The notes under the pieces are model-generated. The model did not search any database. It was not told where the DNA came from and was given only the letters and a program-made list of their open reading frames with translations. This document shows positions 24,152 to 46,137 of a DNA stretch of 64,000 bases, one piece after another (the stretch's first letter is position 1; each line of letters opens with the position of its first letter). Location of the stretch: the NCBI GenBank assembly GCA_017483195.1, contig JAFULR010000016.1:7169-71168 (forward strand). The letters are read 5' to 3'. The position numbers were made by a program, and so were the translations under genes. This DNA is from Clostridia bacterium (GTDB lineage Bacteria > Bacillota > Clostridia > Oscillospirales > CAG-272).

Positions 24152-27094
24152 GTGACGGACATCAATAATGACGACGTAAAAAAACTGCTTGAAATGCTCA
24201 AGGAGCATACCGAGCAGCCGGCTGAAGATAAAACAAATACTCAGACTACCGATAATTCCATACATTCCGACGATGATATAAAGAATATGCTTAAAAAGCA
24301 TTTTTCTGCAGGAGAAAGTGTGGATACTTTTGAAACGGGAGAGGATTATTCCTTTGAGACCGTTGATTTCGGAAGGATCGATGACGATATAATTACAAGC
24401 GAGATAGTTACCGAGGAAACCGTGGATGCTGCGGGTGAGATCCCCCTCACAGAGGAATCGGATGCTTCGCTTGAGGAGCAGCTCACTGAAGTGCCCAATG
24501 AATACGAACCCTCCGAGCCTGAAGAAGATCAGTCGGAGATGCTTGAATTAAATAGTGAAGAGTCCAAGAGCGAGCCCACCATGATAGAAGAGGTATTTTC
24601 TTCAGCTGAGGCTTTCGAAGAGGAGAAGATCGACACTTCCGAGAATCGGGTTGATGAATCCGTTTCCGAATCTCTTGAAAATGATTCTGATGAGGTGGAA
24701 GAAGCGGTTGAGCAGGTAACTCTTGAAACAGAGGAGAAAATCGTTGACGAGATCGTTTCCGAGATCGTTGAAGAGAGAATCGAAAAAGAAGTCGAAGAAG
24801 ATTTCGAAGAGGCTGTGACAGAGGATGATATTCCCAATGATGTTCCTGCTGAAGAGCCCTCCGCACCTGAAGAAGAGGTGATAAATACCGAAGCAGAGTA
24901 TATCGAAGAGCCCATAGCGGAGCAGTCGATAGATTATGATGAGGTCCTTGAGGGACAGCAGGGAACTGTATTCAATGAATTCGTCGAGGACTTTTCGGGT
25001 GATCTTGAGGACGTTGTATTTGAGGCGGAGATCACGGAAAGCCGAGCTCCCGATAAGCAGTACACAATCTTTGAGGATTGGGAAAAGCTTATGAAGGATA
25101 AGAGCTACAGCACCGCCGAGGACGGTATAATCCCCCCGGAGGACGTAGAGCTTGATGAAGGATCTGATGCTTCGCGTAAAGCGAGCGGAAATACGGACTA
25201 TTTCAATCCCGTTACAAGTGCCGATCTCGATGCCGTGGATATTGCGCTTATGGTTGCGCTCGGCGGCGAGAGTGAGCTTAATCAGACTGTTGGATTTGAA
25301 AAAATCCGCCAGGCAGTTCACGAGGACGAGGATAAAACAGAGGACGTTCTCAAAAATAAAAAGATATACGGATTTTGCGGAGAGGAATATCGCTCTCTTG
25401 CGCAGAATGCAGATATAAAGAAAAAATACAATAGCGATAAAATAAAGGTGATTGTTCAAACCGTGGGCACGGCTGTTTTGGCTCTTATGCTTCTCATTTA
25501 TGAGATGACGGGCTGGTCCGGATACGAGCTTCCCTCGATCTTCAGCGTTTACGAGCATCCCGAGCTTTACGTGCTTGCGGGACTTCAGCTTGCGTTCTTC
25601 TGCGCGCTGATCTCATATCATAAGTTTACAAAGCTGTTTAAACGAATATTTGATTTTTCATCGGTATCCTTTATAGCGGCGCTTGTAACCCTTGTGCTCA
25701 ATTTGGTTCACGACGTTTTGATAATCGCAATGGGATACGTTGATCCTAATATCACCTTCCATTCATTCACGGCAAGCCTGTTCCTTTTGAGCTTGGTTTA
25801 CGATCTTTTCGACGTACTCCAGCAGAGCGCGGTGTTTGGAGTTGTATCAACAAGCGAGAAAAAGCTGGTGCTTGAGCCTTACGGCAAGCTCAGAGTGGAT
25901 GATAACGACTATAACGCAACGGGAGAGATCATAGATAATGATAGCTATTGCATTTCCCGTGTGCCCACCGTTAGCAAATTTTTTGAGCATGTGTCCCAAA
26001 GCACCCAGGGTGCTATGAGCAAGCTTGTATCCGTAATACTCAGCTTTTCCGTGGCGCTTTGCGTAATGATAGTTCTTCTTATAATGAATGAGAACTATAC
26101 AACCTTTATTCCTGCGTTTATAATCACGCTTTCCTTCTCTTTGGTGTGCGTTTCCGTGCTTGAGAGTGAATTTGCTTATTTTGTGGTACATAAGATACTT
26201 AAAAAGCACAAAACAGGAATTATAGGAAAGGCGAGCGTTGCCGAATACGGAAAATGTAATATAGTTTATTTCGACGATTACAACGTATTTAATAAAAAAA
26301 GCGTAAGGACGAAGGGCCTTAAGCTATATGATAATAATGAGATCTATCGCGTGCTTTATCACACGCAGGCGGTGTTCTCAAAGGTTGGCGGCCCACTTAA
26401 AGCGGTGTTTGAATTTGCCACGTCCGAGATGATGCACTCCAAGAGTGTAGAGATCAAGGAGATAGGCAAGGAGGGTATCGTAGCTCTCGTTGACGGAAAG
26501 ACGTCCGTTCATATAGGAACGGGTGCGTTTATGAGGAGCAGAGGGATCCACCCAAGCTATACTGCGGCGGATGTTAAGGTCGAGGAGAGGGGCGAGGAGA
26601 GCATAATGTTTATAGCACTCAGCGGAAGACTCAGCGCAAAGCTCTACGTTACCTATCAGTTCTCGGCTGAATTTGAAAAGCTTGCGAGAAGACTTGCGGC
26701 TAAGGGTGTGGGCATTGGAATACGCTCTTGCGATCCCAACGTCAATAACAGATGGGCAAAGAGGTATTCAAGCATTAAAAAGCTTGATATCAGTATAGTC
26801 CGTCCCACACTTAAGGAAATGAAGCCCACGGAAAAATCAATCGACGGCGGCATTGTTTCCTCAAAGAACGTCCGCGCTCTTACAGAAGCTCTCATGATGT
26901 GCATCAAGCTCGATGGCTTTGAGGCACTTCTCAGCAAGCTCAGAGTTGCTTCCGTAGTTGTTATAGGCATACTTTCATTCGCCCTGGTGCTTTTCTCGGG
27001 CATTAATACAGTCAGTATGCTTGCGCTCATACTTGCTTGTGCGCTTTGCACTTCAATTATGATGCTTCTCACGTATTTCTATATCAAGCGTTAA
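24152..27094 (+). CDS. Large membrane protein: acidic low-complexity N-terminus plus a degenerate P1B-ATPase-like C-terminal half
   Basis: About 330 aa very rich in E/D, several TM helices, then IVYFDDYNV in place of VFDKTGT and an N-domain-like GIVALVDG...IGTGAFM. Confidence 0.6.
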   Translation: MTDINNDDVKKLLEMLKEHTEQPAEDKTNTQTTDNSIHSDDDIKNMLKKHFSAGESVDTFETGEDYSFETVDFGRIDDDIITSEIVTEETVDAAGEIPLTEESDASLEEQLTEVPNEYEPSEPEEDQSEMLELNSEESKSEPTMIEEVFSSAEAFEEEKIDTSENRVDESVSESLENDSDEVEEAVEQVTLETEEKIVDEIVSEIVEERIEKEVEEDFEEAVTEDDIPNDVPAEEPSAPEEEVINTEAEYIEEPIAEQSIDYDEVLEGQQGTVFNEFVEDFSGDLEDVVFEAEITESRAPDKQYTIFEDWEKLMKDKSYSTAEDGIIPPEDVELDEGSDASRKASGNTDYFNPVTSADLDAVDIALMVALGGESELNQTVGFEKIRQAVHEDEDKTEDVLKNKKIYGFCGEEYRSLAQNADIKKKYNSDKIKVIVQTVGTAVLALMLLIYEMTGWSGYELPSIFSVYEHPELYVLAGLQLAFFCALISYHKFTKLFKRIFDFSSVSFIAALVTLVLNLVHDVLIIAMGYVDPNITFHSFTASLFLLSLVYDLFDVLQQSAVFGVVSTSEKKLVLEPYGKLRVDDNDYNATGEIIDNDSYCISRVPTVSKFFEHVSQSTQGAMSKLVSVILSFSVALCVMIVLLIMNENYTTFIPAFIITLSFSLVCVSVLESEFAYFVVHKILKKHKTGIIGKASVAEYGKCNIVYFDDYNVFNKKSVRTKGLKLYDNNEIYRVLYHTQAVFSKVGGPLKAVFEFATSEMMHSKSVEIKEIGKEGIVALVDGKTSVHIGTGAFMRSRGIHPSYTAADVKVEERGEESIMFIALSGRLSAKLYVTYQFSAEFEKLARRLAAKGVGIGIRSCDPNVNNRWAKRYSSIKKLDISIVRPTLKEMKPTEKSIDGGIVSSKNVRALTEALMMCIKLDGFEALLSKLRVASVVVIGILSFALVLFSGINTVSMLALILACALCTSIMMLLTYFYIKR

Positions 27095-31179: not shown

Positions 31180-31218
31180 TTTATACATTTTAGAATATAG
31201 TAAAAAACAGAGGTTTTT

Positions 31219-31704
31219 ATGAAAATCATTGACAAAACTGTATTCATCGCCGACGGCGCGCGTGTTCTCGGTGATGTTGAAATAGGAAAAAACTCAAGTG
31301 TTTGGTTCAACGCGGTTATCAGAGCGGATCTTTCGGATATCAAAATCGGTGAAGGATCCAATATTCAGGACAACGCGGTGATACACACGAGTAAGGATTT
31401 TGGCGTGTGCATCGGTGATAACGTGACCGTCGGTCACGGAGCAATAGTTCACGGTTGTACTGTTAAAAATAACGTGATGATAGGAATGGGCGCGATCGTA
31501 TTAAACGGCGCAATTATTGAGGAAAACTGTATCATAGGCGCGGGCGCACTCGTTACGCAAGGAAAAGTTATACCTGCTGGCAGCCTCGTTTTTGGTAACC
31601 CTGCAAAGGTCGTTCGAAGCCTTACCGATTCGGAGATAAGGTCCATAACCGATAACGCAGCTTCATACGTTGAGGAAGCCGAACACTATAAAAACAACAA
31701 ATAA
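31219..31704 (+). CDS. Gamma carbonic anhydrase family (hexapeptide repeat) protein
   Basis: GDVEIG..SSVWFNAVIRAD, NIQDNAVIH, TVGHGAIVHGC. Confidence 0.92.
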   Translation: MKIIDKTVFIADGARVLGDVEIGKNSSVWFNAVIRADLSDIKIGEGSNIQDNAVIHTSKDFGVCIGDNVTVGHGAIVHGCTVKNNVMIGMGAIVLNGAIIEENCIIGAGALVTQGKVIPAGSLVFGNPAKVVRSLTDSEIRSITDNAASYVEEAEHYKNNK

Positions 31705-31705
31705 T

Positions 31706-31739
31706 AAAAAATCTCACCACGGAAGGGTGAGATTTTTTT
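31706..31739. terminator. Bidirectional terminator between the gamma-CA gene and switch 1
   Basis: AAAAA-ATCTCACC-acggaag-GGTGAGAT-TTTTTT. Confidence 0.8.
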
Positions 31740-31820
31740 CATATTAATAAAGTAAAATGCATTGATTTGAAGCATAACAGCTCATCTCAATGCATTATTT
31801 TTATATAATTTTCGAAAAAA

Positions 31821-32008
31821 GTTCATACTTTACGTTATTGTATGAACCTTTTTAACGTGCGTATTATAACATAAAAATCAAGTTTTGTCAACATATGTTG
31901 AGAATTGTTAGCATAATATACAATTTTTATTTTTCAAAAGGCTCTAAAATACAGCAAGTTGCATATTGTATGGATAAAATGGTTCATACAATAACGTATT
32001 ATATGAAC
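31821..32008 (-). promoter_or_regulatory. Candidate invertible promoter (switch 1), OFF orientation
   Basis: Sites GTTCATACTT-TACGTTA-TTGTATGAAC (31821-31847) and GTTCATACAA-TAACGTA-TTATATGAAC (31982-32008) have reverse-complementary cores; between them is a minus-strand TTGACA(31891-31886)-17 bp-TATAAT(31868-31863). Confidence 0.8.
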
Positions 32009-32057
32009 CATTACCACTTTTGGCTTTAAGGAGAGCGTTATTTCGAGCGAGGTAGTT

Positions 32058-32972
32058 ATGGGAACGGTAGTTACAACGTTGGCACAATGGTTTAAAGAAA
32101 ACCCAAAAATAGCTTCCGAGTGGGATAGCGCATCCAACACGCACCTTGATCCCGAAATTAACGGAATGGGCGTCAATCAAAAGGCATGGTGGATCTGCCC
32201 CAAGGGACACCGCTACGATGCGTGGGTATTTTCTCGCACTCTTAACGGCATGGGCTGTCCATACTGCAAGGGAAAAAGAACCTTAGCGGGCTTCAACGAT
32301 CTCGCCACCTTCCGCCCCGACGTTTTAGAAAAATGGGATTTTGAAAAAAATACTGATATCACACCTGCCGAAGTGACAGAATTTTCGCACAAAAAGGTCT
32401 GGTGGAAGTGCGAGAAGGGCCACTCTTGGCAAGCGCGAGTCGGAGCGATAACGAGCGTCAAGGAGGGCTTTTCGGGCTGTCCGTACTGCTCGGGAAAATA
32501 CGCTATCACGGGCGAAACGGATCTCGCAACGCGTTTTCCGGAGATCGCGGCGCAGTGGTGCTACGAGTTAAACGAGGAAACGCCTGACAAAGTGAGTTAC
32601 CAATCGCACAAATCGGTCTTTTGGAAATGCGAACGCGGCCACACCTGGCAGGCAAAGGTCGAATCACGAACGGGCAAACAAAAATCGGGTTGTCCCTATT
32701 GTTCGGGCTATCGACTTTGGACAGGGTACAATGACCTCGCAACGATGCGCCCAGACATAGCCGCAGAATGGAACCACGAGAAAAACGGTGATCTTAAGCC
32801 CACGGACGTATTAAGAAACTGCCGCGAACGCGTTTGGTGGAAATGCGCCGAGGGGCACGAGTGGCAAACGACAGTTCTTGCCCGCGCAAAGAAAAACGGA
32901 ACAAATTGCCCCATCTGCTCACGAAAGAAAAAGCCTTCCCCTGAGGGTAGCGAAGCGGCACGAGCGCAATGA
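32058..32972 (+). CDS. Zinc-ribbon repeat protein (DUF4379-like, 4 repeats)
   Basis: Four units of about 70 aa: (P)EIAAEW..EKN...P..V......VWWKC..GH.W...V..R.....CPxC. Confidence 0.85.
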   Translation: MGTVVTTLAQWFKENPKIASEWDSASNTHLDPEINGMGVNQKAWWICPKGHRYDAWVFSRTLNGMGCPYCKGKRTLAGFNDLATFRPDVLEKWDFEKNTDITPAEVTEFSHKKVWWKCEKGHSWQARVGAITSVKEGFSGCPYCSGKYAITGETDLATRFPEIAAQWCYELNEETPDKVSYQSHKSVFWKCERGHTWQAKVESRTGKQKSGCPYCSGYRLWTGYNDLATMRPDIAAEWNHEKNGDLKPTDVLRNCRERVWWKCAEGHEWQTTVLARAKKNGTNCPICSRKKKPSPEGSEAARAQ

Positions 32973-33074
32973 ATAACAGTCCAGTGGACTGTTAGAACGC
33001 GAGTGGACCGAGCCCACGCGGACCCCCAAAACTCGACTGCGCTCGTTTCGGGGAACCCCTACCGCAGGCGAGAC
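32946..33074. repeat. About 80-bp MITE-like element with a nested 48-bp insertion
   Basis: GGTAGCGAAGCGGCACGAGCGCAATGAATAACAGTC...GACTGTTAGAACGCGAGTGGACCGAGCCC[insert]GCAGGCGAGAC; other copies at 41656-41736 (reverse complement) and 42327-42407. Confidence 0.85.
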
Positions 33075-33432
33075 AAGGGGGCGAACACATAGCTAAATTC
33101 AGGTCAAAACACGGTTTTGCTCGCAAAACTTTGTCGTAAGACAAAGAGTGTTTTGATAGGCGCGCAAACCATACTCTCGATAACCGTTAAATTTCACGCG
33201 CGGCGTATGAGGGGAGCGAAATCCGCACGAATCAAGGTCAATAATCTAAACGTAACACGCGACCTTACAGGCACGTTTACATAAGCAAAAACAAAAATCC
33301 CGCGCAGTTTTTCGACCGCGTGCCCGACGCGTAAGCGTCATCCTCGAGCGAAAGCGAAGGATCTTGGGCGCGCATGCGAAAATCCGGCGCGGAGAACAAC
33401 AAATTTTTAAAAACATTACGGAGGTTATAGTT

Positions 33433-34044
33433 TTGTTTAACAGAAGAAACAAATTAATAGTTGTTGTAATTGCGGTTGTATTGATTGCAATTGCGGTGGT
33501 TGCTGCTGTTGTGCTTGTTAATGATACAAACAACAAAAAGGCAATTGGCATTGAAATAGTAACTGCACCTGTGGATCTTGAGTACTATAAGTACGATACT
33601 CTTGACCTTACGGGTTTGTCTGTAAAGCTCAGAAAGAACAATGCTCAGTATGACGAGATGATCGATGTTTCAAGGCTAACGGTTACTGGCTTTGACAGCA
33701 CGGTAGTTACCGAGAGACAGACGGTTACAGTTTCCTATGAGGGATTTACCGCAACGTTCGCAGTTAAGATTGAGGAGCTTCCCGCACCGAAGCCTGCGGT
33801 TGTTGGACTTAAACTCGAAATGGACGAGGGATATGAATTAAAGACAGAATACAAGGTTGGAGAAGCATTGGATCTGTCCCATATGTATTTGGTGGTTACT
33901 TATTCTGATGGAACGACTGCAAGAATCTCTGTAACACTTGATCATGTTTCAGGATTTGATAGTCGCAGACCTGCAACGGAGCAGAGAATTAAGGTATCCT
34001 ACGGAGGCTTGTTTACAAAATATTATGTAAACATCGTGGAATAA
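33433..34044 (+). CDS. Membrane-anchored protein with two bacterial Ig-like (Big_3-type) domains
   Basis: TTG start after GGAGG; N-terminal TM helix; two repeats of EY..G..LDL.G/H..........V.GFDS......Q.V.VSY.G. Confidence 0.8.
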   Translation: MFNRRNKLIVVVIAVVLIAIAVVAAVVLVNDTNNKKAIGIEIVTAPVDLEYYKYDTLDLTGLSVKLRKNNAQYDEMIDVSRLTVTGFDSTVVTERQTVTVSYEGFTATFAVKIEELPAPKPAVVGLKLEMDEGYELKTEYKVGEALDLSHMYLVVTYSDGTTARISVTLDHVSGFDSRRPATEQRIKVSYGGLFTKYYVNIVE

Positions 34045-34136
34045 AAATAAATTACAGAAGTCAGTAAACCGTGGCCGTGAAAACGACACGATTACATAAA
34101 TTAATTAGTTAATAAACATTACGGAGGAAAAAAGTA

Positions 34137-37100
34137 ATGAGAAACAACAAACAGAAGGGTTTCACCCTTGTTGAGTTGCTGGTCGTTATCGCGATTTTAG
34201 CGATACTTGCGACTGTTGCGACTGTTGGATACACTGCTTTTATTAAGCAGGCGCACGTATCTAACGATGAGAACGTAGCAACACAGCTCAACCATTTTAC
34301 GGATGCGCTTAAAGCGGATTCGAATAGCCCAGTCTACGAAAAATTGCAGGCGAACGGCGGCAAGATAACCGTAGACAATGTTCGTGATATTACTGACTAC
34401 ATTCTCACAGATAGCGGACTTGGTACTCTCGTTCCTCAGTCTGCAGATTATGGATATCACTTCTATTTCGACCTTGATGCACAGGAATACGTGCTTATCG
34501 GCGACGACGATCCCAGAATGTTGTCTATGTCTCCTCTTGGCAGACTTTTTGCAGGTGCGGCTGAGTACTCACTCACAATACACCCCGAGCAGTGCCTCAC
34601 CAAGGATAGCAGATACTTCCTTGTTGAAACAGGAACAGAGCTTGCTCGTCTTGTAGCTGAATTCAAGGAAATTTCCGACAAAGACAAATTGAGCGCATAC
34701 CACACATCCGTTTCTACTTATGAAACAGATGCTAGAGGTAAGCTCGTAGGTCTTATCGCATTGGTTGAAAGAACTGTTTTCACAACTAATGTAGGACATT
34801 TGGTTGTTGATACTACAAAGAATCACGATCACTTGTTTGTTCAGAAGGATTTGGTAGTTTCTAATAAAAATAACCACGAAATTACAGGTCTTGACGGCGT
34901 TACTGTTATCGACAAAACACATCCTTTGGTAGCTTTGCAGAGTGAACAGGTTATTGAAATCAGCATCAAGGATGACGTTACTCTTGCAACTCATTCTTGG
35001 TGGTTTGCAAACCCCGAGAAGGCTACTCTTGTAATTAAGGGTATTGCAGATCCTGCAACGCTTGCTACAAGAGTTGACATTGACTTTACAAATGCTAAAT
35101 TCATCCTTGATGATGGTAAGACTTATACATATAAGAATGGCTCCATTATGGATGCTGACGGAAATTCTACACCCGTAGAAGGAAAGAACAAGGTAAAGGA
35201 TTTCACTGTTACTTGTGACGGTGTGGAAGCAGGCGTAGTTGCATTCGGTAACTCCGGTAACAATACATACAGCTTGTACATCCATTACAACAAAACAGAA
35301 GCCTTCAACTTGGGCGCTACAGGATTCAAGGGCACAGTTTCTGATGTAAACATTTCCGGTACAGATGATGTCAAATTCGAGAAAATCTCCGGTTCTTCTA
35401 AATTGACAGTAACTGAAGACGGTAAGGTTCAGGTAACAGGTTACCCTGAAACAAATGACCTTACAGCAAAAATCAAAGTAACATGTGGCGTAGCTGAGCC
35501 TAAGACAATTGATGTTACTATTGTAAGAGTAACCAACGCTTCCGTTCCTTTCAATGGTAGCACATTGACTATGAGCGATAACAATAATACATTGACAATC
35601 AGCTACACAGGAAACAAGGTATTTACATTTGGTACTGCTTCTTTTGCAGACAACTCCTCCAATACAGGTATAAATATTGTAGCTGCAGACAAACAAGTGA
35701 CAATTACTCATGGTGCAGGTGACGTATTTACTATCAGCGACAATAAAACACTCACACTTAACAAGTTTGAGGGCACACAGACTTTCACAATTACAGTTGG
35801 TAAGATGAGCAAGACATTTACTGTAACTGTAGAAGACAACTCTAAGAATCCCTTTGACATTAAGTGGGATACCGATAAAGACGCAGGTATTAAGTACACA
35901 ACAAGCGGTGAAGGCGAGAATGCAGTAAAGATCCCCTCTTTCCTCTACCGTGTTGGTAACGATAATGCGATTACACTCGGCACTCTCTTCAATACTATAG
36001 AAGAGTTTAGCGGAAATGCAACACTTACTATTTACGATGCTTCTCAGAAGTCAGGAACCACTTATAAAGAAATCAATACTTCCAACCCCAATTTGAACGC
36101 ATCCTACGATGATGCTAAGACACTTTCTTACTCTGATTGGGCAAGCAAGAAAATCACTTTTAAGGGTGAAGGCGTAGCTATTATCGAAATTACTTACAAC
36201 AAGCAGACTGTTAAGGTTGCTGTTGAGGTTGTTGATGGTTACAATGTGTTGACATATGGTGATCTCTCTGCTAAGAATGCAAGCAATCAGACATACAAGA
36301 ACTTTGTTCTTCAAAATGATATTGAAATGCCCTCTGAGGGAGCTTTGAATTTGCAAGGCAATTTCTTTGGCAATGGATATACATTTGATATTACAAAGGG
36401 CAAGTACCACTATACCGAGGGTGGTCGCAATGGTATTATTACACTTTACGGTGGCGCACTTATGGATAACGTTGTAATTATCGGTGATAAGTACACAACA
36501 ATTTGTGACGCACATAAAAATGCTTATTATGTAGCTGCAATTGGTTTGGAGGGCGGTATACTCTCTAACTCCTATGTTTATGGCTGTCAGACACCCGTAC
36601 GTTCTACAGGTGGCAAGATCATCAATACCGTTCTTGATGGTGGCAGATTCGCAAACTTGATTTGTAAGGGTGGTAAAACAACTGTTGAAGACATCACAAC
36701 AATCAATCAAGCTACTGACAAATACTGTGGTTTGGGTATTGTAGTTGAGGGAGGTGCAACCTTGAATGTAGATGGTTCACTTACACAGCACAACTGGATT
36801 TCTTCAAGCGACAAAGCATTGATCACTGACAATACCATATCCACATTTTTTGATTTGATGTTTGGTATCAGTGAAATTAAATTCAATCATAGCAACGACT
36901 CTTGGGTTAACACAGGTATATTCCTTAAGGATGCGACAGCTATTGTAATTAATGCTCCTTCCAATTATATTAAAGTTGCAAAATCTTATTCTTCCATGGG
37001 TATTACCGCTACAGGTTACGCATACAGCTTCAATAATAGTGTATATAGCTTTACAGGCAAAGTAACTCCCAATGCGTATACTCCCGTAACACAGGGCGCT

Positions 37101-38696
37101 TATGCTCCTAAGCTTGAATGGACATACCCCGAAGGATACAATTCGACAACTAATACAATTACTATTAAAGTAGATGAAGGTGCAGTACTTGAGTTTGATC
37201 CCAACTTCTTGCTTGCATCTAAATACGGTAACAATTTGCAGGTTGTAGTAAAGGTAAACGGTCAGGATTATACAGGCAACAAGATTGCAATTAATAGCAC
37301 TGCTGATAACACATTTACAATCACTTACTCCTATACCGATACTTATGTTCATGATATGCTTGGTGCTGGAGTAGTAACATCCATCAACTATGTAGATACG
37401 GTTGAAGTTTCAGTTCAGGTTATTAAGCAAGTTGGTGCTCCCGACTTTACATTCCACTACGGAACAAATGGTAGTGCAAGTGCAGGTTCTCCTCACGTAA
37501 CACAACCCTCTACTACCGTATCAGGTATAGTTGTTACAGCAGGTGCTGATAAATACATTATGCCCGATGTATCCGCTACACAAGATAACAAGATCGGTTC
37601 TACAACTGTTAATAACGTTACTATCTACTACCCCATTGTTGATGGTATTAACGTTCGTTCCGGTGCTTCAACTGACTATGACTTCTTGAGATACTATCCC
37701 ATCTTCAAGGGTGTAACAATTTCGGATGATACTCGCTCCTTTGGTTACACAACTACAAAGGAAATGCCCTCATACTTCACTTGGGTATCCGCTTCAATAG
37801 ATAGTGGTAACTCTTCTTCTGGTTTAGCAACAGATAAAGAGACGGGTGCTATACTTTATACATGTTACAACGACACTTACTTGTCTCGTTATCAGACACA
37901 AAAAGGTAATACCGAAGGCGGCGGAACATCTGTGGTTAAGTACAGCTATCAGGCGGTTGATGGTAATACTTACTACTACTATATTGGTTATAGATTCTAT
38001 GATGAAGACGAAGGCGGTGCTTGTGTAACAGGTGACACGCTTGTAACACTCGCTGACGGTACACAGAAGGAAATTCGAGACGTAACTGCTGAAGATATTC
38101 TCCTTGTATGGAATCACTTCACAGGTAAGTACGATACAGTTCCTGCTGCAATCATCTTCAATCACGGATATGATTACAACACAGTTATTAAGCTTAACTT
38201 TAGCGATGGAACGCAGGTTAAGATGATTAACCTCCACCAGTTCCTCGATGCAGATCTTAATAAGTACGTTACTATCGATTCTGCTAATGTTCAGGATTAT
38301 GTTGGACACAACTTCGTAAAGCAGGATGGCGATTCTTACACAACAGTAACTCTCGAATCCTATGAAATTTCCGAAGAGTATATCGAAGCTTACGGTATCA
38401 TTTCCGCACTTCACTACAACTTCTTTGTTGAAGGCATGTTCTCAACCGACTTTAAGAAAGACGATTATGACCTCTTCAACTATTTCACAATGGGTGAAAA
38501 CATGATGTTCGATGCAGAACAGATGCAGAGCGATATCGACACATACGGTTTGTACACATATGAAGACTTCGCTGAATACCTCACATATGAGCAGTTCGTT
38601 GGATTCAATGTACAGTACTTCAAGATTGCAGTTGGCAAGGGATATTACACATATGAAGGTATTCTTGATTTGATTGCTACATATCTTGGCAAATAA
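34137..38696 (+). CDS. Giant type IV pilin-like protein (1519 aa) with a C-terminal Hint (Hedgehog/intein-like) domain
   Basis: Class III signal KQKG|FTLVELLVVIAILAILA; T/N/V/G-rich beta-type body; Hint blocks GGA|CVTGDTLVTLADG (Cys1296), INLHQFL and HYNFFVEGMFS; 83-aa tail. Confidence 0.88.
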   Translation: MRNNKQKGFTLVELLVVIAILAILATVATVGYTAFIKQAHVSNDENVATQLNHFTDALKADSNSPVYEKLQANGGKITVDNVRDITDYILTDSGLGTLVPQSADYGYHFYFDLDAQEYVLIGDDDPRMLSMSPLGRLFAGAAEYSLTIHPEQCLTKDSRYFLVETGTELARLVAEFKEISDKDKLSAYHTSVSTYETDARGKLVGLIALVERTVFTTNVGHLVVDTTKNHDHLFVQKDLVVSNKNNHEITGLDGVTVIDKTHPLVALQSEQVIEISIKDDVTLATHSWWFANPEKATLVIKGIADPATLATRVDIDFTNAKFILDDGKTYTYKNGSIMDADGNSTPVEGKNKVKDFTVTCDGVEAGVVAFGNSGNNTYSLYIHYNKTEAFNLGATGFKGTVSDVNISGTDDVKFEKISGSSKLTVTEDGKVQVTGYPETNDLTAKIKVTCGVAEPKTIDVTIVRVTNASVPFNGSTLTMSDNNNTLTISYTGNKVFTFGTASFADNSSNTGINIVAADKQVTITHGAGDVFTISDNKTLTLNKFEGTQTFTITVGKMSKTFTVTVEDNSKNPFDIKWDTDKDAGIKYTTSGEGENAVKIPSFLYRVGNDNAITLGTLFNTIEEFSGNATLTIYDASQKSGTTYKEINTSNPNLNASYDDAKTLSYSDWASKKITFKGEGVAIIEITYNKQTVKVAVEVVDGYNVLTYGDLSAKNASNQTYKNFVLQNDIEMPSEGALNLQGNFFGNGYTFDITKGKYHYTEGGRNGIITLYGGALMDNVVIIGDKYTTICDAHKNAYYVAAIGLEGGILSNSYVYGCQTPVRSTGGKIINTVLDGGRFANLICKGGKTTVEDITTINQATDKYCGLGIVVEGGATLNVDGSLTQHNWISSSDKALITDNTISTFFDLMFGISEIKFNHSNDSWVNTGIFLKDATAIVINAPSNYIKVAKSYSSMGITATGYAYSFNNSVYSFTGKVTPNAYTPVTQGAYAPKLEWTYPEGYNSTTNTITIKVDEGAVLEFDPNFLLASKYGNNLQVVVKVNGQDYTGNKIAINSTADNTFTITYSYTDTYVHDMLGAGVVTSINYVDTVEVSVQVIKQVGAPDFTFHYGTNGSASAGSPHVTQPSTTVSGIVVTAGADKYIMPDVSATQDNKIGSTTVNNVTIYYPIVDGINVRSGASTDYDFLRYYPIFKGVTISDDTRSFGYTTTKEMPSYFTWVSASIDSGNSSSGLATDKETGAILYTCYNDTYLSRYQTQKGNTEGGGTSVVKYSYQAVDGNTYYYYIGYRFYDEDEGGACVTGDTLVTLADGTQKEIRDVTAEDILLVWNHFTGKYDTVPAAIIFNHGYDYNTVIKLNFSDGTQVKMINLHQFLDADLNKYVTIDSANVQDYVGHNFVKQDGDSYTTVTLESYEISEEYIEAYGIISALHYNFFVEGMFSTDFKKDDYDLFNYFTMGENMMFDAEQMQSDIDTYGLYTYEDFAEYLTYEQFVGFNVQYFKIAVGKGYYTYEGILDLIATYLGK

Positions 38697-38757
38697 ACTA
38701 ATACATTTCTCACGCCACCCCCACGGGTGGCGTGGGTTAATTACAAAAGGAAAAATT

Positions 38758-39405
38758 ATGGCAAAATTAAAATCGAGAAACTCGAACAGAAAAATTATAA
38801 TCCTTGTTGCCTGTGTTGTGTTAGCACTAGTAATAGGTGCAACAGTGGCTGTTTTGCTTGTGCAGGAACAAAATCACGGCGAGCAGATTAGCCATATTAA
38901 TATCAGCTCTATGCCCAATGATAGGGAATACTATCTTGACGAAGCACTTGATATAACAGGATTATCCGTTCAGGTTGTTTTGAATAATGGTTCTTATTAT
39001 TTTGTTTCTGCTGATGAAGTGACTGTAACCGGATTTGACAGTTCAAAAGTTAAAGAAGAGTTGGTTTTAACTGTAAGATATCAGGGATTTACAGATACAT
39101 TCACGGTATCTGTTGAAGCGTTTCCTAAGCCTAAGCCCACACTTGTTTATATAGAGGTAAAGGACTATAAACCAACTTATACATGGGCTGAATGGCAGAG
39201 TAATTGGATAAATCTTGATGGAACATATATTGAGTGTCATTATAGCGACGACAGCACATATAGAGTTACATTGACTACAGCTCGTATCATTGACGGTCTC
39301 GAAGGCATAAACGGCCCCGGCACGTATACACTTACTGTTTACTATGACGAATATGAAAGCGGAGTATTTTGTACTACGACCTTCACTATTACAATAACAA
39401 ATTAA
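38758..39405 (+). CDS. Membrane-anchored bacterial Ig-like (Big_3-type) protein, paralog of 33433-34044
   Basis: N-terminal TM helix; EYYLDEALDITGLSV...VTVTGFDSS...LTVRYQGFT..F.V followed by PKPKP. Confidence 0.8.
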   Translation: MAKLKSRNSNRKIIILVACVVLALVIGATVAVLLVQEQNHGEQISHINISSMPNDREYYLDEALDITGLSVQVVLNNGSYYFVSADEVTVTGFDSSKVKEELVLTVRYQGFTDTFTVSVEAFPKPKPTLVYIEVKDYKPTYTWAEWQSNWINLDGTYIECHYSDDSTYRVTLTTARIIDGLEGINGPGTYTLTVYYDEYESGVFCTTTFTITITN

Positions 39406-39406
39406 T

Positions 39407-40183
39407 ATGCCAAGATTCAGTTTAACACACATAATATTTTTACTCTGCGTAGTGGCGTTTTTGGCGGGCACGATGTGGCTAATATCGAAGCTCAATCGCA
39501 AGTGGCAGAACGTGATGATCGTCATTGGAGCGCTTCTTTGCGCGGGCGGAATTTTCTTCCGCTACGGTATGGGGCTTTCCTTTGAGGACGGTTTCACTTG
39601 GAAAACACTCGGTATGGAGATGCTTCAGGTGTGCAATTTCAATTTCATTTTGGTTCTGCTTATGCTGATTCCGAAGTTTGAGCTTGCGCGACAGTACAGC
39701 ATATTTTTCTCGATGTTCGCCGCGTCCACAACGCTCGTTAGCCTTCAGTCGAATTGGGCGACGATGAATTGGTACGACCTCACGATTATGAACTCGCTTA
39801 TCAATCACGTTTTCATTATCGCAGTTCCGCTCTGGATGCTCTCCGCGCGCCGCTTGAAGCCCCGCAAGGAATATATTTGGACGGTTGCGGGCAGTGTTTT
39901 CATTTATATGACGGTGGTTGCGATAATCGTAACGGTGCTTATGAAAAACGGCGTAATAACCGATCCCACGCCGCATTATTCGTTTATTTACGATACGTAC
40001 GGCATTGAGGTGCTTGATTTCCTTTATTGGCTCATTCCGTGTCCCTATTTTTATCTTTATCCTCTCGGCCCGCTTATGGTAGCATTCTTTTACTTCCTTG
40101 CGTGGGCATTCAGAAACTATGAGGTGAAACCTTATTGGGAACCGGAACGCGATACAAACAAAGACAACCCCTTTGAGGAGTAA
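39407..40183 (+). CDS. YwaF/TMEM164-like integral membrane protein
   Basis: N-terminal FSLTHI, LQVCN (compare LPLHLC), INH, HYSFI and PCPYFYL in a multi-TM protein. Confidence 0.65.
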   Translation: MPRFSLTHIIFLLCVVAFLAGTMWLISKLNRKWQNVMIVIGALLCAGGIFFRYGMGLSFEDGFTWKTLGMEMLQVCNFNFILVLLMLIPKFELARQYSIFFSMFAASTTLVSLQSNWATMNWYDLTIMNSLINHVFIIAVPLWMLSARRLKPRKEYIWTVAGSVFIYMTVVAIIVTVLMKNGVITDPTPHYSFIYDTYGIEVLDFLYWLIPCPYFYLYPLGPLMVAFFYFLAWAFRNYEVKPYWEPERDTNKDNPFEE

Positions 40184-40398
40184 TAATACATATTTCAATT
40201 TATATTAACCTATAACCGCAAGTATGGGCACTCGGCAAGAATCCTTTTGGTGTTTTTCTTCAGTGATTCCTGCGAGCTTGCGGTTAAAAAGGGGCGCGGA
40301 AACGCGCCCCGGATAAGAAAAATGTACGAAATAATGTACAAAACGCAATAGAGAAGGGGAAAAGATTTGTGCAAGTTGCCAATCTTTCTCAATTATTG

Positions 40399-40427
40399 TT
40401 GACATTTCCTTGAAAATGGTGTATAAT
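40399..40427 (+). promoter_or_regulatory. sigmaA promoter of the small pilin pair, no flanking inversion sites
   Basis: TTGACA-17 bp-TATAAT. Confidence 0.85.
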
Positions 40428-40522
40428 ACACTCGTAAAAAGTCAGAATATTCTGATTTTTCTATGTTTGATTGCACAACAAACACACAAAATTTTTTTGA
40501 AAACAAAAGGAGATTTATTCCA

Positions 40523-40918
40523 ATGAAAACTAAAGGCTTTACACTCGTTGAGTTGCTTGTTGTTATTGCTATCCTCGCAATCCTTGCAACAGTTTCCGTA
40601 GTTGGTTACACATCTTACATTAAGAATGCAAATGAAAGCGTAGCTCTTCAGGAAATGACTCAGGTTAGATCCTCTATCAAGGCTGAAGACATCCTCAATG
40701 GTAACTTTGCTATTTCTGGTGGAAAAGTTGCTCTTACAACAGGAAAAGATACTTCCAATGAAGAACTCGCTGCATTTGTTACTGAGTTGAACAAAACTTT
40801 GAAGAATGGTCAGGTACAGACTATAGCAGATCAATCTGCTAATATCGTATACAAATCTAAAGACGGAACAATTACTGCTACTTGGGATTTGGTAACTGAC
40901 GCTATCACTGTTCAGTAA
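40523..40918 (+). CDS. Type IV pilin (131 aa)
   Basis: MKTKG|FTLVELLVVIAILAILATVSVVGY; RBS AGGAG. Confidence 0.92.
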   Translation: MKTKGFTLVELLVVIAILAILATVSVVGYTSYIKNANESVALQEMTQVRSSIKAEDILNGNFAISGGKVALTTGKDTSNEELAAFVTELNKTLKNGQVQTIADQSANIVYKSKDGTITATWDLVTDAITVQ

Positions 40919-40951
40919 TATATTAATAAAATTTAAAGGAGAATTGGTCCA

Positions 40952-41356
40952 ATGAAAACTAAAGGCTTTACACTCGTTGAGTTGCTTGTTGTTATTGCTA
41001 TTCTTGCAATCCTTGCAACTGTATCCGTAGTTGGTTATACATCTTACATTCAGAATGCTAATGATAGCGTAGCTGTTCAGGAACTTTCTCAGCTTCGTGA
41101 TTCTGCTCTTGCTGTTGACTTGACAAAGTCCGAGGGTGGTAATATGGACGGTAAGGTATCCGTTGGCGAATTTAAGGAAGCTTTAACAAATGCAGGCATT
41201 ACATTTAATGAGAATGTATTTGTTATTACTCACGAAAATAAAGAGGGAGTAGATGCTGCAAAGCAGATTGTTACAAAAGTAGTTTACAAGCACTCCAATG
41301 GTGGCGTAGCTACTTGGACAGTTTCTGGCGACAAGGTTGAAGCAGGAGAAAAATAA
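40952..41356 (+). CDS. Type IV pilin (134 aa)
   Basis: First 33 aa identical to the upstream pilin; divergent C-terminus. Confidence 0.92.
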   Translation: MKTKGFTLVELLVVIAILAILATVSVVGYTSYIQNANDSVAVQELSQLRDSALAVDLTKSEGGNMDGKVSVGEFKEALTNAGITFNENVFVITHENKEGVDAAKQIVTKVVYKHSNGGVATWTVSGDKVEAGEK

Positions 41357-41418
41357 TCCAAACTATTCCAATTAATACCGCTCGCGATCTCGCAATCAAT
41401 CGCGGTGACGGAATATAT

Positions 41419-41454
41419 AAAACCCTCGAGCTACGGCTCGAGGGTTTTTCTTTT
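41419..41454 (+). terminator. Terminator after the pilin pair
   Basis: AAAACCCTCGAGC-tacg-GCTCGAGGGTTTTT. Confidence 0.8.
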
Positions 41455-41469
41455 GCGGCAGCAATCCAC

Positions 41470-42540
41470 TAAGCCTTCTCCAGCGGGAGAAGGTGGATGC
41501 GAGCAACGGAAATTAACGATTTTTGCTTGCCACAGGCGAGCAGACGGATGAGGTGTGAAGAACAAGTGACTCCTCATCCGCTTCGCGTACGCTCAGCACC
41601 TTCTCCCACAGGAGAAGGCTATTTGTGTGTTTGCACAAGCTCGTAGGGGTCGGCGGTCTCGCCTGCGGGCTCGGTCCACTCGCGTTCTAACAGTCCCCCG
41701 GACTGTTATTCATTGCGCTCGTGCCGCTTCGCTACCTCGACGACCCGTGTTTGTGGAAAAAGTAACTTCACCTTTGGAAAGTCACAAAGACTCCTTCGTA
41801 GATCCCATCGTCGCTGTCGCTCCTCGGTTTTGCATCGGCTCGCTTGCGCTCCCTCAGCAAAACTTCGCTACGCTCAGGATGACGTATAGCCGTTTTGATG
41901 GCGCGCCACTATTGTTTTGGATAACCGATTAATATTACGCGCGGCGCACAAACTCGTAGGGGCGCGCTGTGCGCGTCCGTATCCGTGGGAAAGTAACTTT
42001 GTCTTTGAAACTCTCCCACCACCACTTCGTGGTCCCCCTCCCTCGACAGAGGGAGGCGAGTTTTCTGTTGTTGCCCTCACTCGTAGGGGTCGGCGCCCCC
42101 GACGACCCGTGTTTGTGGAAAAAGTAACTTCACCTTTGGAAAGTCACAAAGACTCCTTCGTAGATCCCATCGTCGCTGTCGCTCCTCGGTTTTGCATCGG
42201 CTCGCTTCGGCTGATTGTAATTATACGGTCAAAAGTGCAGGGCTCCCTCTGCAAAACTTCGCTACGCTCAGGATGACGTCTCTGAACGATATTTGCGGTA
42301 GTGCGATTATTAGCTCGGGTCGTCGGGGTAGCGAAGCGGCACGAGCGCAATGAATAACAGTCAGGGGGACTGTTAGAACGCGAGTGGACCGAGCCCGCAG
42401 GCGAGACCGCCGACCCCTACACAAGTAAGTGCGCAGCCGTCAATTTTGCACTTTGCATTTTGTATTTAGCGGGTGCACGGAGTGCCCCCCTACGAGAGTG
42501 AGAGCGCAGCCGTCAATTTTGCACTTTGCATTTTGCATTT
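41470..42540. repeat. Non-coding cluster of REP/BIME-like and MITE-like repeats
   Basis: GTAG REPs at 41643, 41956, 42083 and on the minus strand ending at 42420 and 42493; 108-bp direct repeat 41738-41845/42100-42207; 105-bp inverted pair 41643-41747/42316-42420; 32-bp repeat at 42431 and 42504. Confidence 0.85.
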
Positions 42541-42560
42541 AGTGCGGTGACGGAATATAT

Positions 42561-42590
42561 AAAACCCTCGGGAGATCCCGAGGGTTTTTA
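42561..42590. terminator. Terminator for the MATE gene (bidirectional)
   Basis: AAAACCCTCGGGA-ga-TCCCGAGGGTTTTT. Confidence 0.75.
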
Positions 42591-42595
42591 TTTGC

Positions 42596-43951
42596 TTAAA
42601 GCTCGATATTTTGCTGTTCTATCCGCTTCATTTCTTTTCTGAAAACGAGCAGAATTACCGCAGAAATCACGCACACCGACAAAACCGTAAGGGGGGCATT
42701 GAGCCACAATCCCGTGAGCCCCAAGCCGTATAGCGCGAAAATAAATATCATTGGGAAAATAAACGCCGTCCCAACTGAAATAAGGGTCGCGTAAAGCGAT
42801 TTTTCAACCGCCGTCATATAGCTCTGCGTTGCAAAAGCAAACCAGAACATAAGCTTTGATACTGCAAAAATTTTAAGCGCCTTTACCGCCTCGTTCAAAA
42901 AAGCGGTGTCCGTGCTTGTTGTGAAAAGGGAAACGAGAACGTCGGGAATAAACCACATCATAGCAAACGAAACGACCGAAACCGCCGCGCTCGCTCCAAA
43001 CGTCCATTTTGTGATCTTCTTGACTCGATCAAAGCGGCGCGCGCCCCAGTTATATCCGATCGCGGGCTGGAGTGAATCGCAAATTCCGTAGATCAAGGGC
43101 TGGATTATCTCGCCAACGTACATTTGTATTCCGTAAATTGCTACCGCACTGTCGCCACCCATGGAAATGAGCGCCTTGTTCATTGCGATCGAGGTTATTC
43201 TGCCCGAAACGTTATTAAGAAATATGGGCATTCCGCATTGGATTATCTTTTTCGTGGTTTTTACCGAGAAGCGCGGTTTGGTTATTTTCAACTGCATTTT
43301 GCCGATCGCGAACAGTGTGAATGCTATCAATACCGATGCGCCGAAGCAAATGCACGGAGCAAGCGCTGCGCTCCAGATACCCCATCTGAAAACAAAAAGG
43401 AATAAAAATTCAAGCAAGATGGTGGAAATACTTGTGCCGATATTGAGCCACATGCTAAGCTTTACCTTGCCTGAGATCCTTAAATAGTTATCAAAAGCAA
43501 ACGCCGCGGGGGATATGGGTGAGAAGAACGCATAAACGCGAATATATTCAACTCCGAGTCTTTGAGCCTCGGGGCTTGCGTCAAGAAAGTCGAGAATGAC
43601 GGGTGCGCCGAACCAAAGAACGAGTCCCATAAGCGCGCCTGCTCCCGTTATCATAAGAAGCGCGCAGGTGAATATGTTATTAGCTTCCTTTTCATCCTGC
43701 CTGCCGAGAGCTATTGAGATCGGCACTGCCGAGCCCACCGCCACAAGGTCGGAAAGGGAAAAGCTGATTATTACGAAGGGGAAGGCGATATTTATTGCCG
43801 CAAACGCGGTATCCCCAAGTATGTTTCCTATAAATATACCGTCAAACAAACCGAAAATGGCGGAGGCGAGCATACTTACAGCACCCGGTATTGCGGCTAT
43901 AAAGAACAGTCTCCACACAGTCGTTTTTAAGAAAAATTCCTTATGATCCAT
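42596..43951 (-). CDS. MATE family efflux transporter
   Basis: AIPG...FGLFDGIFIG..LG..AFAAINI.FP, LQPAIGYNWGARRFDRVK; about 12 TM. Confidence 0.93.
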   Translation of the reverse strand: MDHKEFFLKTTVWRLFFIAAIPGAVSMLASAIFGLFDGIFIGNILGDTAFAAINIAFPFVIISFSLSDLVAVGSAVPISIALGRQDEKEANNIFTCALLMITGAGALMGLVLWFGAPVILDFLDASPEAQRLGVEYIRVYAFFSPISPAAFAFDNYLRISGKVKLSMWLNIGTSISTILLEFLFLFVFRWGIWSAALAPCICFGASVLIAFTLFAIGKMQLKITKPRFSVKTTKKIIQCGMPIFLNNVSGRITSIAMNKALISMGGDSAVAIYGIQMYVGEIIQPLIYGICDSLQPAIGYNWGARRFDRVKKITKWTFGASAAVSVVSFAMMWFIPDVLVSLFTTSTDTAFLNEAVKALKIFAVSKLMFWFAFATQSYMTAVEKSLYATLISVGTAFIFPMIFIFALYGLGLTGLWLNAPLTVLSVCVISAVILLVFRKEMKRIEQQNIEL

Positions 43952-44014
43952 ATTATCCTCTTTCAAATTGATACCCATACATTATATATGAATATCCTTG
44001 AAAAGTCAATGGAT

Positions 44015-44977: not shown

Positions 44978-45153
44978 TGGTTTTTCCTCTCTTTTTGCTC
45001 ATTTATTCCAAAATATTAAATCCGGCGAAAAAATATTCAAAAAAATTTTAAAATGGCAAATGAGAAAAAACGAGGAAATCATATGAAAAAACGAGAAAAC
45101 GAGAGATTGATTGGCGATAAATTAAAATCGCAAAAAAAGTTTTCAAAAAGGTA

Positions 45154-45182
45154 TTGACAAAGGGGAATATATTTGTTATAAT
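45154..45182 (+). promoter_or_regulatory. sigmaA promoter of rplM-rpsI
   Basis: TTGACA-17 bp-TATAAT. Confidence 0.85.
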
Positions 45183-45229
45183 GTGCAAGGTTAAAAATCA
45201 TAACACAATTTTATTGGAGGAAACATTTA

Positions 45230-45658
45230 ATGTCAACTTATTTTGCTAATGCAAATACCATTGAAAGAAAATGGTACGTTATAGACGCTGCTAATAAGCC
45301 CCTCGGTAGAACTGCAGTTGCTGCTGCTAACATTCTCCGCGGTAAGCACCGTCCCGAATTCACACCCCACGCTGACTGCGGTGAATTCGTAATCATCATC
45401 AATGCTGATAAGGCTATTCTCACAGGTAGAAAGCTTGAGCAGAAGTACTACTACCATCACTCCGGTTACATCGGCGGTATGAAGGCTGTTCAGTACAAGA
45501 CTCTTATGGCTACAAAGCCCGAGCTTGCTATGACTCTTGCAGTTAAGGGCATGCTCCCCCACAACACACTTGGCGCAAAGGCTGCTACACGTCTTAAGGT
45601 TTATGCAGGCGCTAACCACAAGCACGAGGCTCAGAAGCCCGTTGCTTACGAAGTTTAA
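45230..45658 (+). CDS. rplM: 50S ribosomal protein L13
   Basis: [42 protein letters not shown]. Confidence 0.99.
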
Positions 45659-45678
45659 TGAAAGGTAGGACGAAGAAT

Positions 45679-46080: not shown

Positions 46081-46101
46081 AAAACAACAAATTATGCTTT
46101 T

Positions 46102-46137
46102 TACAACACCTGCAGTTTTGCGGGTGTTGTTTTTTAT
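46102..46137 (+). terminator. Terminator after rpsI
   Basis: ACAACACCTGCA-gttt-TGCGGGTGTTGT followed by a T-run. Confidence 0.75.

Follow-up and report, generated by a model that had tools for sequence, protein, structure and literature searches.

A probable invertible promoter, assembled in its OFF orientation, upstream of a DUF4379 gene and a pilin-like gene run in a gut Clostridia genome

Why would a perfect consensus promoter lie immediately upstream of a gene and point the other way? The question is raised by positions 31821-32008 of a 64,000-nt stretch of a Clostridia bacterium genome (Oscillospirales, CAG-272; GenBank assembly GCA_017483195.1, contig JAFULR010000016.1, forward-strand positions 7,169 to 71,168; hereafter the window), where a short intergenic segment between inverted repeats carries a sigma-70-type promoter that is directed away from a gene starting at 32058. 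This segment, termed S1, is probably an invertible promoter (inverton) parked OFF in the assembly. In line with this reading, inverted repeats surround a short intergenic segment whose internal promoter is predicted to read out through one of the repeats.

The genome that holds the window (G000) measures 1.34 Mb in 29 contigs and is 88.6% complete. The genus-wide search for the repeat pattern and the recombinase census covered 23 genomes, which are kin to one another. Orientation was checked by comparing window positions 31200-51100 with contigs (Logan) of three DNA runs from three studies (X1, X4, and X7) and of one RNA run (X15), a type of data in which no read starts, strands or minority alleles are visible. 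According to the run records, the sequencing runs matching the stretch are gut, feces, and bovine gut metagenomes.

A consensus promoter between two sites of a recombination-type family

The repeats of S1 form two 34-nt arms (31821-31854 and 31975-32008) that are 88% complementary and separated by a 120-nt spacer. Within these arms lies the perfect 18-bp inverted repeat described in an earlier note on this DNA (31831-31848 and 31981-31998, the right core copy being a perfect inverted match to the left one), while the enclosed segment, given there as about 150 bp, is roughly of that size, the distance between the cores being 132 bp. Seen as recombination sites, S1 consists of two 27-bp sites inverted around a 134-bp segment. 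The left site (31821-31847) reads GTTCATAC-N11-GTATGAAC, with both half-sites canonical (0 mismatches), and the left core copy contains its locus-specific centre together with the inner half-site; the right site (31982-32008) is the gene-proximal one.

Nothing recognisable lies in the inner segment apart from one perfect sigma-70 promoter, on the minus strand (31863-31891, from the first base of the -35 hexamer at 31891 to the last base of the -10 hexamer at 31863), which is directed leftward, i.e., OFF, in the assembly. It is the TTGACA-17-TATAAT with extended TG that had been reported, matching the consensus at 12/12 positions with a 17-nt spacing and a TG before the -10. Between 31000 and 41000 there are only two 12/12 matches, S1 and 40399-40427, and weak promoter-like matches occur at chance level (25 found vs. 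24.8 expected), so that only perfect matches carry weight. Genome-wide, 78 perfect TTGACA-N17-TATAAT sites were counted vs. ~0.16 expected by our own arithmetic, from which it follows that the organism really uses this consensus. The statement that no other consensus promoter exists up to 40183 holds at the scan thresholds, the best plus-strand matches reaching 10/12 and lying inside open reading frames (ORFs).

Each arm of S1 is a 27-bp quasi-palindrome of the form GTTCATAC-N11-RTATGAAC, and this pattern recurs. Allowing ≤ 2 mismatches, it gave 8 strand-matches (4 sites) in the window vs. 0.05 expected, a number reached in 0 of 100 shuffles, the other two sites being 50320-50346 and 50458-50484; genome-wide, at ≤ 1 mismatch, there were 13 strand-matches and none for the reversed control pattern. 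At ≤ 3 mismatches the sites of G000 pair into four switches, namely S1 (window 31821-32008), S2 (window 50320-50484), S3 (contig C21:2658-2821), and S4 (C22:12284-12427). The same site family thus surrounds promoters at three further G000 loci, and it does so at seven complete loci in three sister species (four in G015: C10, C48, C27a, and C27b; one in G017: C67; two in G006: C125 and C6), giving n = 11 complete switches. Some of these are orthologous and therefore non-independent (S2 with G015_C48, and S4 with G015_C27b and G006_C125). Every complete switch holds one promoter scoring 11 or 12 of 12 and has an RBS-bearing (ribosome-binding site) gene on one side. In the five switches for which it was computed (S1, S2, S3, S4, and G015_C10), the distance between the exit end and the start of the -35 hexamer is 67-71 nt, a constant spacing that would let the transcript begin a few nt before the exit site.

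The 44 pooled half-sites yield the consensus GTTCATACWWT, with T at position 11 in 44/44, an architecture that can be written as 11-5-11 or as two 10-nt arms flanking a 7-bp T-N5-A centre. When the left 11-nt centre of each locus was compared with the reverse complement of the right one, 8-11 of the 11 positions were identical in all 11 switches, as opposed to 3-8 of 11 when the two centres were compared directly and to a mean of 5.7/11 between loci, where the high values belong to orthologues. Judged by these alignments, the asymmetric centre is private to each switch and stands in opposite orientation in the two sites of that switch. S1 has the 7-bp overlap TACGTTA, the same in both partner sites and enclosed by inverted arms, as in core-type sites of tyrosine recombinases; an odd-length site with a 7-bp overlap fits such an enzyme, which needs private, inverted centres to flip each segment without recombining the switches with each other. 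Centres of this kind are just what a demand for overlap homology in recombination would predict.

Palindromic sites that occur at several loci and flank promoters might also be the operators of a dimeric transcription factor with a pilin regulon, and short units (144-188 bp) with terminal inverted repeats and an outward promoter might be the ends of a miniature inverted-repeat transposable element (MITE), in both cases with no programmed inversion. Operators, however, leave unexplained why the centres are private to each locus and yet inverted copies within it, and why 9/11 promoters face away from the only adjacent gene and toward a T-run or terminator. Copies of a MITE would share internal sequence and identical ends, whereas S1-S4 resemble neither one another nor the rest of the genome in their inner segments, which rules out a MITE family; besides, the centres are private and no flanking direct duplication was seen at S1. 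The positions of S2 and S4 are also syntenic across species. Centres that are inverted within a locus and private between loci fit inversion by a tyrosine recombinase and neither of these alternatives, which we regard as very improbable.

Several searches delimit the family. When 40 relatives were searched with the DNA of 31400-32500, only the hexapeptide gene aligned (query 1-300), the switch being unalignable at the DNA level outside the species. A 42-nt match to the S1 region in G015 C48 was rejected as the ordinary promoter of a transporter gene. No Rfam model scored above noise in 31600-34300, and no known riboswitch was found in the intergenic gap at 32973-33432. A metagenome scan for the site pattern matched at least 118 stretches, and among the matches listed none resembles the G000 switches; L144, the only listed match with G000 DNA, is 78% identical over an unrelated part of contig C4, while L173 and L179, with several sites each, proved to be tandem repeats from unrelated organisms, in which there is no recombinase relative, and were rejected. 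In G000 itself, degenerate sites of the same family, a hairpin with 19-nt arms, and two plus-strand promoters lie before a gene at C15:98260-98610, the sites found at ≤ 3 mismatches spanning 98300-98609; this untidy cluster may be a complex or decayed fifth switch.

Orientation of the promoter and predicted fate of its transcript

The nine complete switches whose promoter faces away from the gene include all four of G000. The promoter faces the gene in the remaining two (G015_C10 and G015_C27a) as well as in the partial switch G015_C37 at a contig start. In this last case (L065 1-300), the contig begins inside the switch, ~80 nt upstream of the promoter facing a pilin-like gene (ON), and assembly breaks of this kind are what mixed orientations would cause.

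The two sites of a switch differ in what lies beyond them. In the 11 switches, the 8 nt beyond the gene-distal site contain 6, 7, 7, 7, 7, 7, 4, 7, 5, 7, and 3 T, against 2, 4, 4, 2, 2, 4, 2, 3, 5, 1, and 2 T beyond the gene-proximal site, and the hairpins of the distal sites are mostly stronger than the proximal ones. At S1, an A6 tract (31815-31820; a T-run on the minus strand) abuts the left site and makes, with the hairpin of that site, a terminator-like structure, whereas the right site has no T-run beyond it and a weaker hairpin (-5.5 vs. -7.1 kcal/mol for the left). The predicted OFF RNA (31857 down to 31700) folds with -48.6 kcal/mol (z = -7.7); in this fold the left site and its flanking A/U runs form a 14-bp stem followed by U6 (31815-31850). 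The bidirectional intrinsic terminator into which the promoter had been said to fire is present as well (31706-31738), with a 13-nt stem (31706-31718 and 31726-31738, 100% complementary), a 7-nt loop, an A-run before and a T-run after it, and the scan lists it on the minus strand. It marks the end of the hexapeptide-transferase gene (31219-31704), lies ~110 nt beyond the left-site hairpin, and appears in the fold as a second terminator.

In the OFF state, the promoter would therefore fire leftward into two successive barriers: the hairpin and U-run of the left recombination site, which is modelled as the first stop at ~40 nt from the start, and the terminator of the hexapeptide gene at ~150 nt. 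Inversion between the cores would convert a position x to 63829 - x. By this arithmetic the -35 hexamer moves to 31938-31943 and the -10 hexamer to 31961-31966, in agreement with the earlier note, which had placed the inverted promoter upstream of the RBS of the 32058 gene (32049-32053); transcription would start near 31973, ~85 nt upstream of the ATG at 32058, and the RNA would pass the right site, which is followed by no U-run, and enter the gene.

Against inversion it may be held that no flipped S1 occurs among the contigs of the three DNA runs. All of them bridge the locus in the orientation of the window (X1 31200-32960, X4 31632-32960, and X7 31228-32959), and X1 and X7 also bridge S2 colinearly, whereas the X4 contig ends at 50253, just before S2; X1, with 0 differences to the window, is possibly the source sample. 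No opposite-strand joint at S1 or S2 was present in the 15 of 47 contig joints that were displayed, and the joints 33059>41950 and 33370>41954 were set aside as probable repeat artefacts (sides under 30, within repeats). Contigs lose minority variants, so only the majority OFF state is seen in them. A further point of the same kind is that S2 and S4 are oriented in G015 as they are in G000; the orthologous pairs are colinear, and no same-locus flip was seen anywhere.

Taken at face value, the exclusive OFF state in the assembly and in the contigs of three DNA runs, the OFF state of all four G000 switches and the lack of an adjacent recombinase in this genome would suit a frozen relic, in which the repeats and the promoter remain, no inversion takes place in the lineage, and the 32058 gene is silent or driven from elsewhere. 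This seems unlikely to us, given that the two 18-bp cores remain an exact match, all four half-sites have the canonical sequence, the sites of S2 and S4 are conserved across species, and a candidate recombinase has kept its six catalytic residues. Mostly-OFF consensus states are, moreover, usual for phase-variable loci such as those of Bacteroides and the C. difficile switches. From the sites, the promoter and the orientation statistics together we infer that the segment probably inverts.

A candidate tyrosine recombinase and serine-linked switches in sister species

G000 has six genes for tyrosine recombinases and a truncated fragment of a serine recombinase, none of them in the window. Four of the six are integrase-like genes of 396-486 aa clustered on contig C1, and the one on C9 reads as Xer-like by our own inspection of its sequence. 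The best candidate for inverting S1 appears to be the enzyme on contig C2 (ORF C2:19640-20602), for which the conserved start gives 309 aa (G000:C2:19673-20602). Of the 23 genomes in the genus, 12 have an orthologue of ≥ 47% identity. Paired canonical sites occur in four (G000, G015, G017, and G006), each with an orthologue at ≥ 60% identity, and in 0/11 genomes that lack one. The residues R149, K191, H253, R256, H279, and Y289 are invariant in 10/10 aligned orthologues, and all six catalytic residues are intact in the G000 protein.

The protein scores 23.6 bits against NCBIfam NF007371 ("tyrosine-type DNA invertase", FimB/FimE-type; cut-off 222) and stays below the Xer equivalog cut-offs (XerC 64.8/335, XerD 43.1/330, and XerA 77.5/220 bits), and is therefore, by score, a member of none of these families; it reaches the cut-off of no NCBIfam equivalog. 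Among proteins of solved structure, an "Int protein" (6en0, E 4.5e-15, over the catalytic domain only) comes closest. A 96%-identical copy is present in a metagenome-assembled genome (MAG) named Clostridia bacterium isolate RGIG6488 Sheep_Rectum.

In one genome, G012, the enzyme and a switch are neighbors: no more than 310 bp after an orthologue of the C2 recombinase (58% identity) lies a switch resembling S1. Its arms are of the GTACRTAC type, its two sites hold the centre in opposite orientations, and its promoter is a minus-strand TTGACA-17-TATAAT; downstream come a DUF4379 orthologue (50% identity) and, ~185 nt later, a pilin-like gene. We propose that a trans-encoded tyrosine recombinase, most plausibly the 309-aa protein on C2, would exchange strands within the 7-bp overlap TACGTTA and thereby flip the segment.

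A second invertible-promoter-like class is found directly downstream of ~200-aa serine recombinases and has different, even-length repeats. In G021, which has no C2 orthologue, a 201-aa serine recombinase (PF00239, E 1.8e-31) stands beside a switch that is positionally equivalent to S1 (L241 697-2500). There, an 18-nt inverted repeat (94% complementary, 107 bp apart) encloses a minus-strand promoter and is followed by a DUF4379 orthologue (49% identity) and by a pilin-like gene that starts 34 nt after the DUF4379 stop. In G007 (L254) and G018 (L256), even-length repeats, e.g., a 9-2-9 palindrome, likewise follow the orthologues of this enzyme, and in G007 there is an outward perfect promoter between the repeats. 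The even-length 9-2-9 sites beside serine recombinases support a tyrosine enzyme for the odd-length S1-type sites; S1 itself, with a 27-bp site and an odd centre, in a genome with no small serine recombinase, does not have the makeup of a serine invertase (Hin/Gin-type) locus. The DUF4379-pilin gene order thus stands behind a switch in three species (G000, G012, and G021). A three-way alignment of the S1, G012, and G021 switches found little in common beyond the promoter hexamers, so that homology of the inner cassettes between tyrosine- and serine-linked versions is not shown.

The assignment of the enzyme is weakened by several facts. It relies on co-occurrence among related, non-independent genomes, which overstates independence, and on the single adjacency in G012; with a genome that is 88.6% complete, another recombinase could be missing from the assembly; and the equivalent switch of G021, beside a serine recombinase and with different repeats, implies that the locus is not tied to one enzyme class. 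The segment could accordingly be inverted by one of the five other tyrosine recombinases or by one in the unassembled 11%. That is improbable in our view, because the four on C1 are integrase-like and the fifth is read as Xer-like, no small serine recombinase is present in G000, the odd-length site differs from the 9-2-9 sites next to serine recombinases, and it is a C2-type gene that directly adjoins the S1-like switch in G012. An inverted-repeat pair following the recombinase gene of G013 was rejected as a switch, as it consists, by our own reading and with no tRNA scan, of tandem tRNA-like direct repeats.

Extent of control, pilus context, and relation to known switches

The gene behind S1 (32058-32972, plus strand) encodes a 304-aa DUF4379 protein with four treble-clef zinc-finger repeats (PF14311, E 1.8e-71, 4 stretches) and, on reading, no signal-peptide-like stretch at the N-terminus. 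After a gap (32973-33432) it is followed on the same strand by a pilin-like run. The first gene of this run (33433-34044; 203 aa; RBS and TTG start at 33433, frame open from 33433) encodes a membrane-anchored Big_3 protein (PF07523, E 2e-14, for ORF 33364-34044), after which come a giant prepilin-motif protein (34137-38696; 1519 aa; PF07963, E 1.9e-10; TIGR02532), a Big_3-domain protein (38674-39405; 243 aa) and, as the last gene, a TMEM164-like integral membrane protein (39407-40183; 258 aa). The 1519-aa product carries the prepilin motif, and a prepilin peptidase and an assembly ATPase are present in the genome, as expected for a type IV pilin; from its sequence we read it as a candidate giant modular type IV pilin-like adhesin. 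Its residues 1295-1427 have weak NCBIfam matches to intein-containing families (E 5e-6 to 4e-4) and may form a Hint-like module near the C-terminus.

S1 was originally proposed to control the whole run from 32058 to 40183. For the DUF4379 gene (32058-32972) such control is likely. For the remainder up to 40183 it is unproven, because a 460-nt structured, repeat-filled gap intervenes, and we consider control of the entire run possible but somewhat doubtful. The same holds for the corresponding step of the mechanism, i.e., transcription that would continue across the 460-nt gap into 33433-40183, which we likewise place below an even chance.

Several features of the gap weigh against such read-through. 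Its first 270 nt are an interspersed repeat mosaic, it folds strongly (z = -3.3), it contains a terminator-like hairpin with a T-rich tail (33129-33146), and contigs of the RNA library extend over 33308-34008 and on to 34234, although they cannot show where a transcript starts. A 38-nt element upstream of the pilin-like operon (33270-33307, GGCACGTTTACATA...AAAAATCCCGCGCAG) is unique in the G000 genome and conserved with G012 (L072 3654-3690), where the flanks are unalignable; its role could be regulatory, or it could belong to a 5' untranslated region (UTR). A sigma-54 reading of this element was dropped, as by our own reading the -12 element does not fit. These features would suit a real invertible promoter that gates the DUF4379 gene (32058-32972) only, with the pilin-like operon having its own start in the gap or depending indirectly on the DUF4379 protein, an alternative that deserves almost even weight. 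On the other side, no promoter-like site ≥ 9/12 was found on the plus strand of the gap, and the gene order behind the switch is kept in three species although the DUF4379 proteins are only ~50% identical. The short DUF4379-pilin spacing (34 nt in G021 and ~185 nt in G012) favors co-transcription, at least ancestrally, whereas the repeat insertion in G000 makes read-through uncertain. In the RNA run X15, cover is 0.14 on 31864-32527 and nil on 34520-39831, with no inference to be drawn from uncovered parts; the X7 contigs also give almost no cover on 34520-39831.

The GC-rich repeat mosaic between the DUF4379 gene and the pilin-like operon (32950-33220) has many copies in the genome, and together with a second stretch (41600-42500) it brackets the operon. 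It is composed of ~10 near-identical 66-nt copies plus other units, occurs on many contigs, often at their ends, and shows 10-25-fold spikes of contig depth where contigs break. Its first repeat unit supplies the final 23 nt of the DUF4379 ORF. Such repeats might mediate cassette exchange.

A prepilin-type N-terminus is encoded behind S2, S3, G015_C27a, G017_C67, and the partial G015_C37, while, from our own reading of the N-termini, a signal-anchor protein seems to be encoded beside S4 and its orthologues and a lipoprotein beside G015_C10; at S1 the adjacent gene is the DUF4379 gene. S2 (50320-50484) has the same half-sites as S1, its own centre TAATACA, and a perfect minus-strand promoter, is OFF with respect to the pilin-like gene 50517-51815, and has a colinear orthologue in G015. 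A sigma-70-family factor gene (49523-50269; 248 aa; regions 2, 3, and 4) ends 50 nt before S2, and the parked S2 promoter aims back at it. The second DUF4379 gene of G000, on contig C1, has no switch that we could find.

Contig C9 carries a type IV pilus machinery composed of small pilins, a prepilin peptidase, and a PilB-type ATPase. Eight prepilin-motif genes were recognised in G000, of which three large ones (432-1519 aa) lie behind S1, S2, and S3; one more large gene of this kind, located where C9 ends, has no sites, and its perfect promoter is fixed. Two small prepilin-motif genes (40463-41356; 151 and 134 aa) follow the perfect TTGACA-17-TATAAT at 40399-40427, are covered by RNA-library contigs at a depth of ~740, and probably encode the major pilins. 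S1 would then be one of at least four G000 switches with shared half-sites and private overlaps, three of which precede large type IV pilin-like genes, so that the cell could vary large pilin-like proteins on top of a constitutive pilus; by analogy with the modular pilins of Streptococcus sanguinis, we infer a constitutive pilus with phase-variable large modular pilin-like subunits. Elsewhere in the window are an FMN riboswitch (12893-13016, 103.7 bits), a SAM riboswitch (15235-15325, 70.2 bits), and a 980-aa ORF (24152-27094) with no Pfam match at E ≤ 0.001.

Bet-hedging by invertible promoters is well established. According to one survey, they are widespread and catalogued by tens of thousands (PMC11602134), and one more is therefore not surprising. 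Another study statistically links the Clostridia inverton group 139 to the tyrosine invertase group 35 by genomic proximity in human-gut isolates (PMC11892184). These are tyrosine-recombinase-linked invertons, as S1 is presumed to be, a likeness by description. In C. difficile, one trans-encoded tyrosine recombinase, RecV, inverts several short intergenic segments that control surface and motility traits, as reported in PMC7446863, PMC9286219, and PMC6837544. The present switches resemble these (flgB, cwpV, cmrRST, and pdcB, among others) in being multi-locus, probably served by a remote tyrosine recombinase and clostridial, again by description. In C. difficile the inverted repeats are unlike from switch to switch, and in several cases control is exerted via leader RNA with the promoter outside the segment; the G000-family switches, in contrast, share one half-site consensus with private overlaps, hold the promoter inside and have type IV pilin-like targets.

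In Bacteroides fragilis, the serine recombinase Mpi is a remote master enzyme that serves many invertible promoters with a shared repeat consensus and produces combinatorial surface states (Coyne 2003 and Weinacht 2004 are said to be the references for it); this phylum is a different one, and the Mpi targets are polysaccharide and outer-membrane-protein loci rather than pilins. The fimS element of E. coli, a short promoter segment of a fimbrial operon inverted by the tyrosine recombinases FimB/FimE, differs in having adjacent recombinases, one locus, 9-bp repeats, and chaperone-usher pili. Site-specific inversion also varies type IV pilus subunits or adhesins in the R64/IncI shufflon (Rci) and in Moraxella (Piv), where coding segments of pilins are swapped, whereas here whole genes would be switched by a promoter flip. 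In a limited literature search, no description was found of type IV pilin genes being switched by promoter inversion in Gram-positive bacteria, although supplements of inverton surveys might list the family, and the DUF4379 papers listed, judged by titles, hold nothing on pilins or phase variation. S1 has the structure of an inverton and would work like the known ones; the example is new, the kind of mechanism known.

Beyond this, we tentatively propose a "pilus-adhesin wardrobe" in a reduced-genome ruminant-gut lineage of Clostridia, a composite of six features whose joint occurrence we hold to be rather doubtful. At least four promoter inversions may be driven by one remote tyrosine recombinase; private 7-bp overlaps may keep the switches from recombining together; the majority of switches may each command their own large modular type IV pilin-like protein, with a length of 1519 aa in one case; the gene-distal site may double as an intrinsic terminator that silences the parked promoter within ~40 nt; the DUF4379-pilin operon may be gated by a tyrosine or a serine switch depending on the species, which would amount to recombinase-class replacement at one locus; and the DUF4379 protein, which would itself be phase-variable, may regulate the adhesin or help to assemble it.

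What the locus offers is a small multi-locus regulon, with one half-site consensus, private overlaps, constant geometry, and a single candidate recombinase, in an uncultured ruminant-gut member of the Clostridia with a genome of ~1.3-1.5 Mb. Two of its design points, if true, are of interest in themselves, i.e., a recombination site doubling as a terminator and an operon that, depending on the sister species, is served by a tyrosine or by a serine recombinase. The genes concerned encode large modular type IV pilin-like proteins, and the switches could govern attachment or phage exposure in a fibre-degrading gut.

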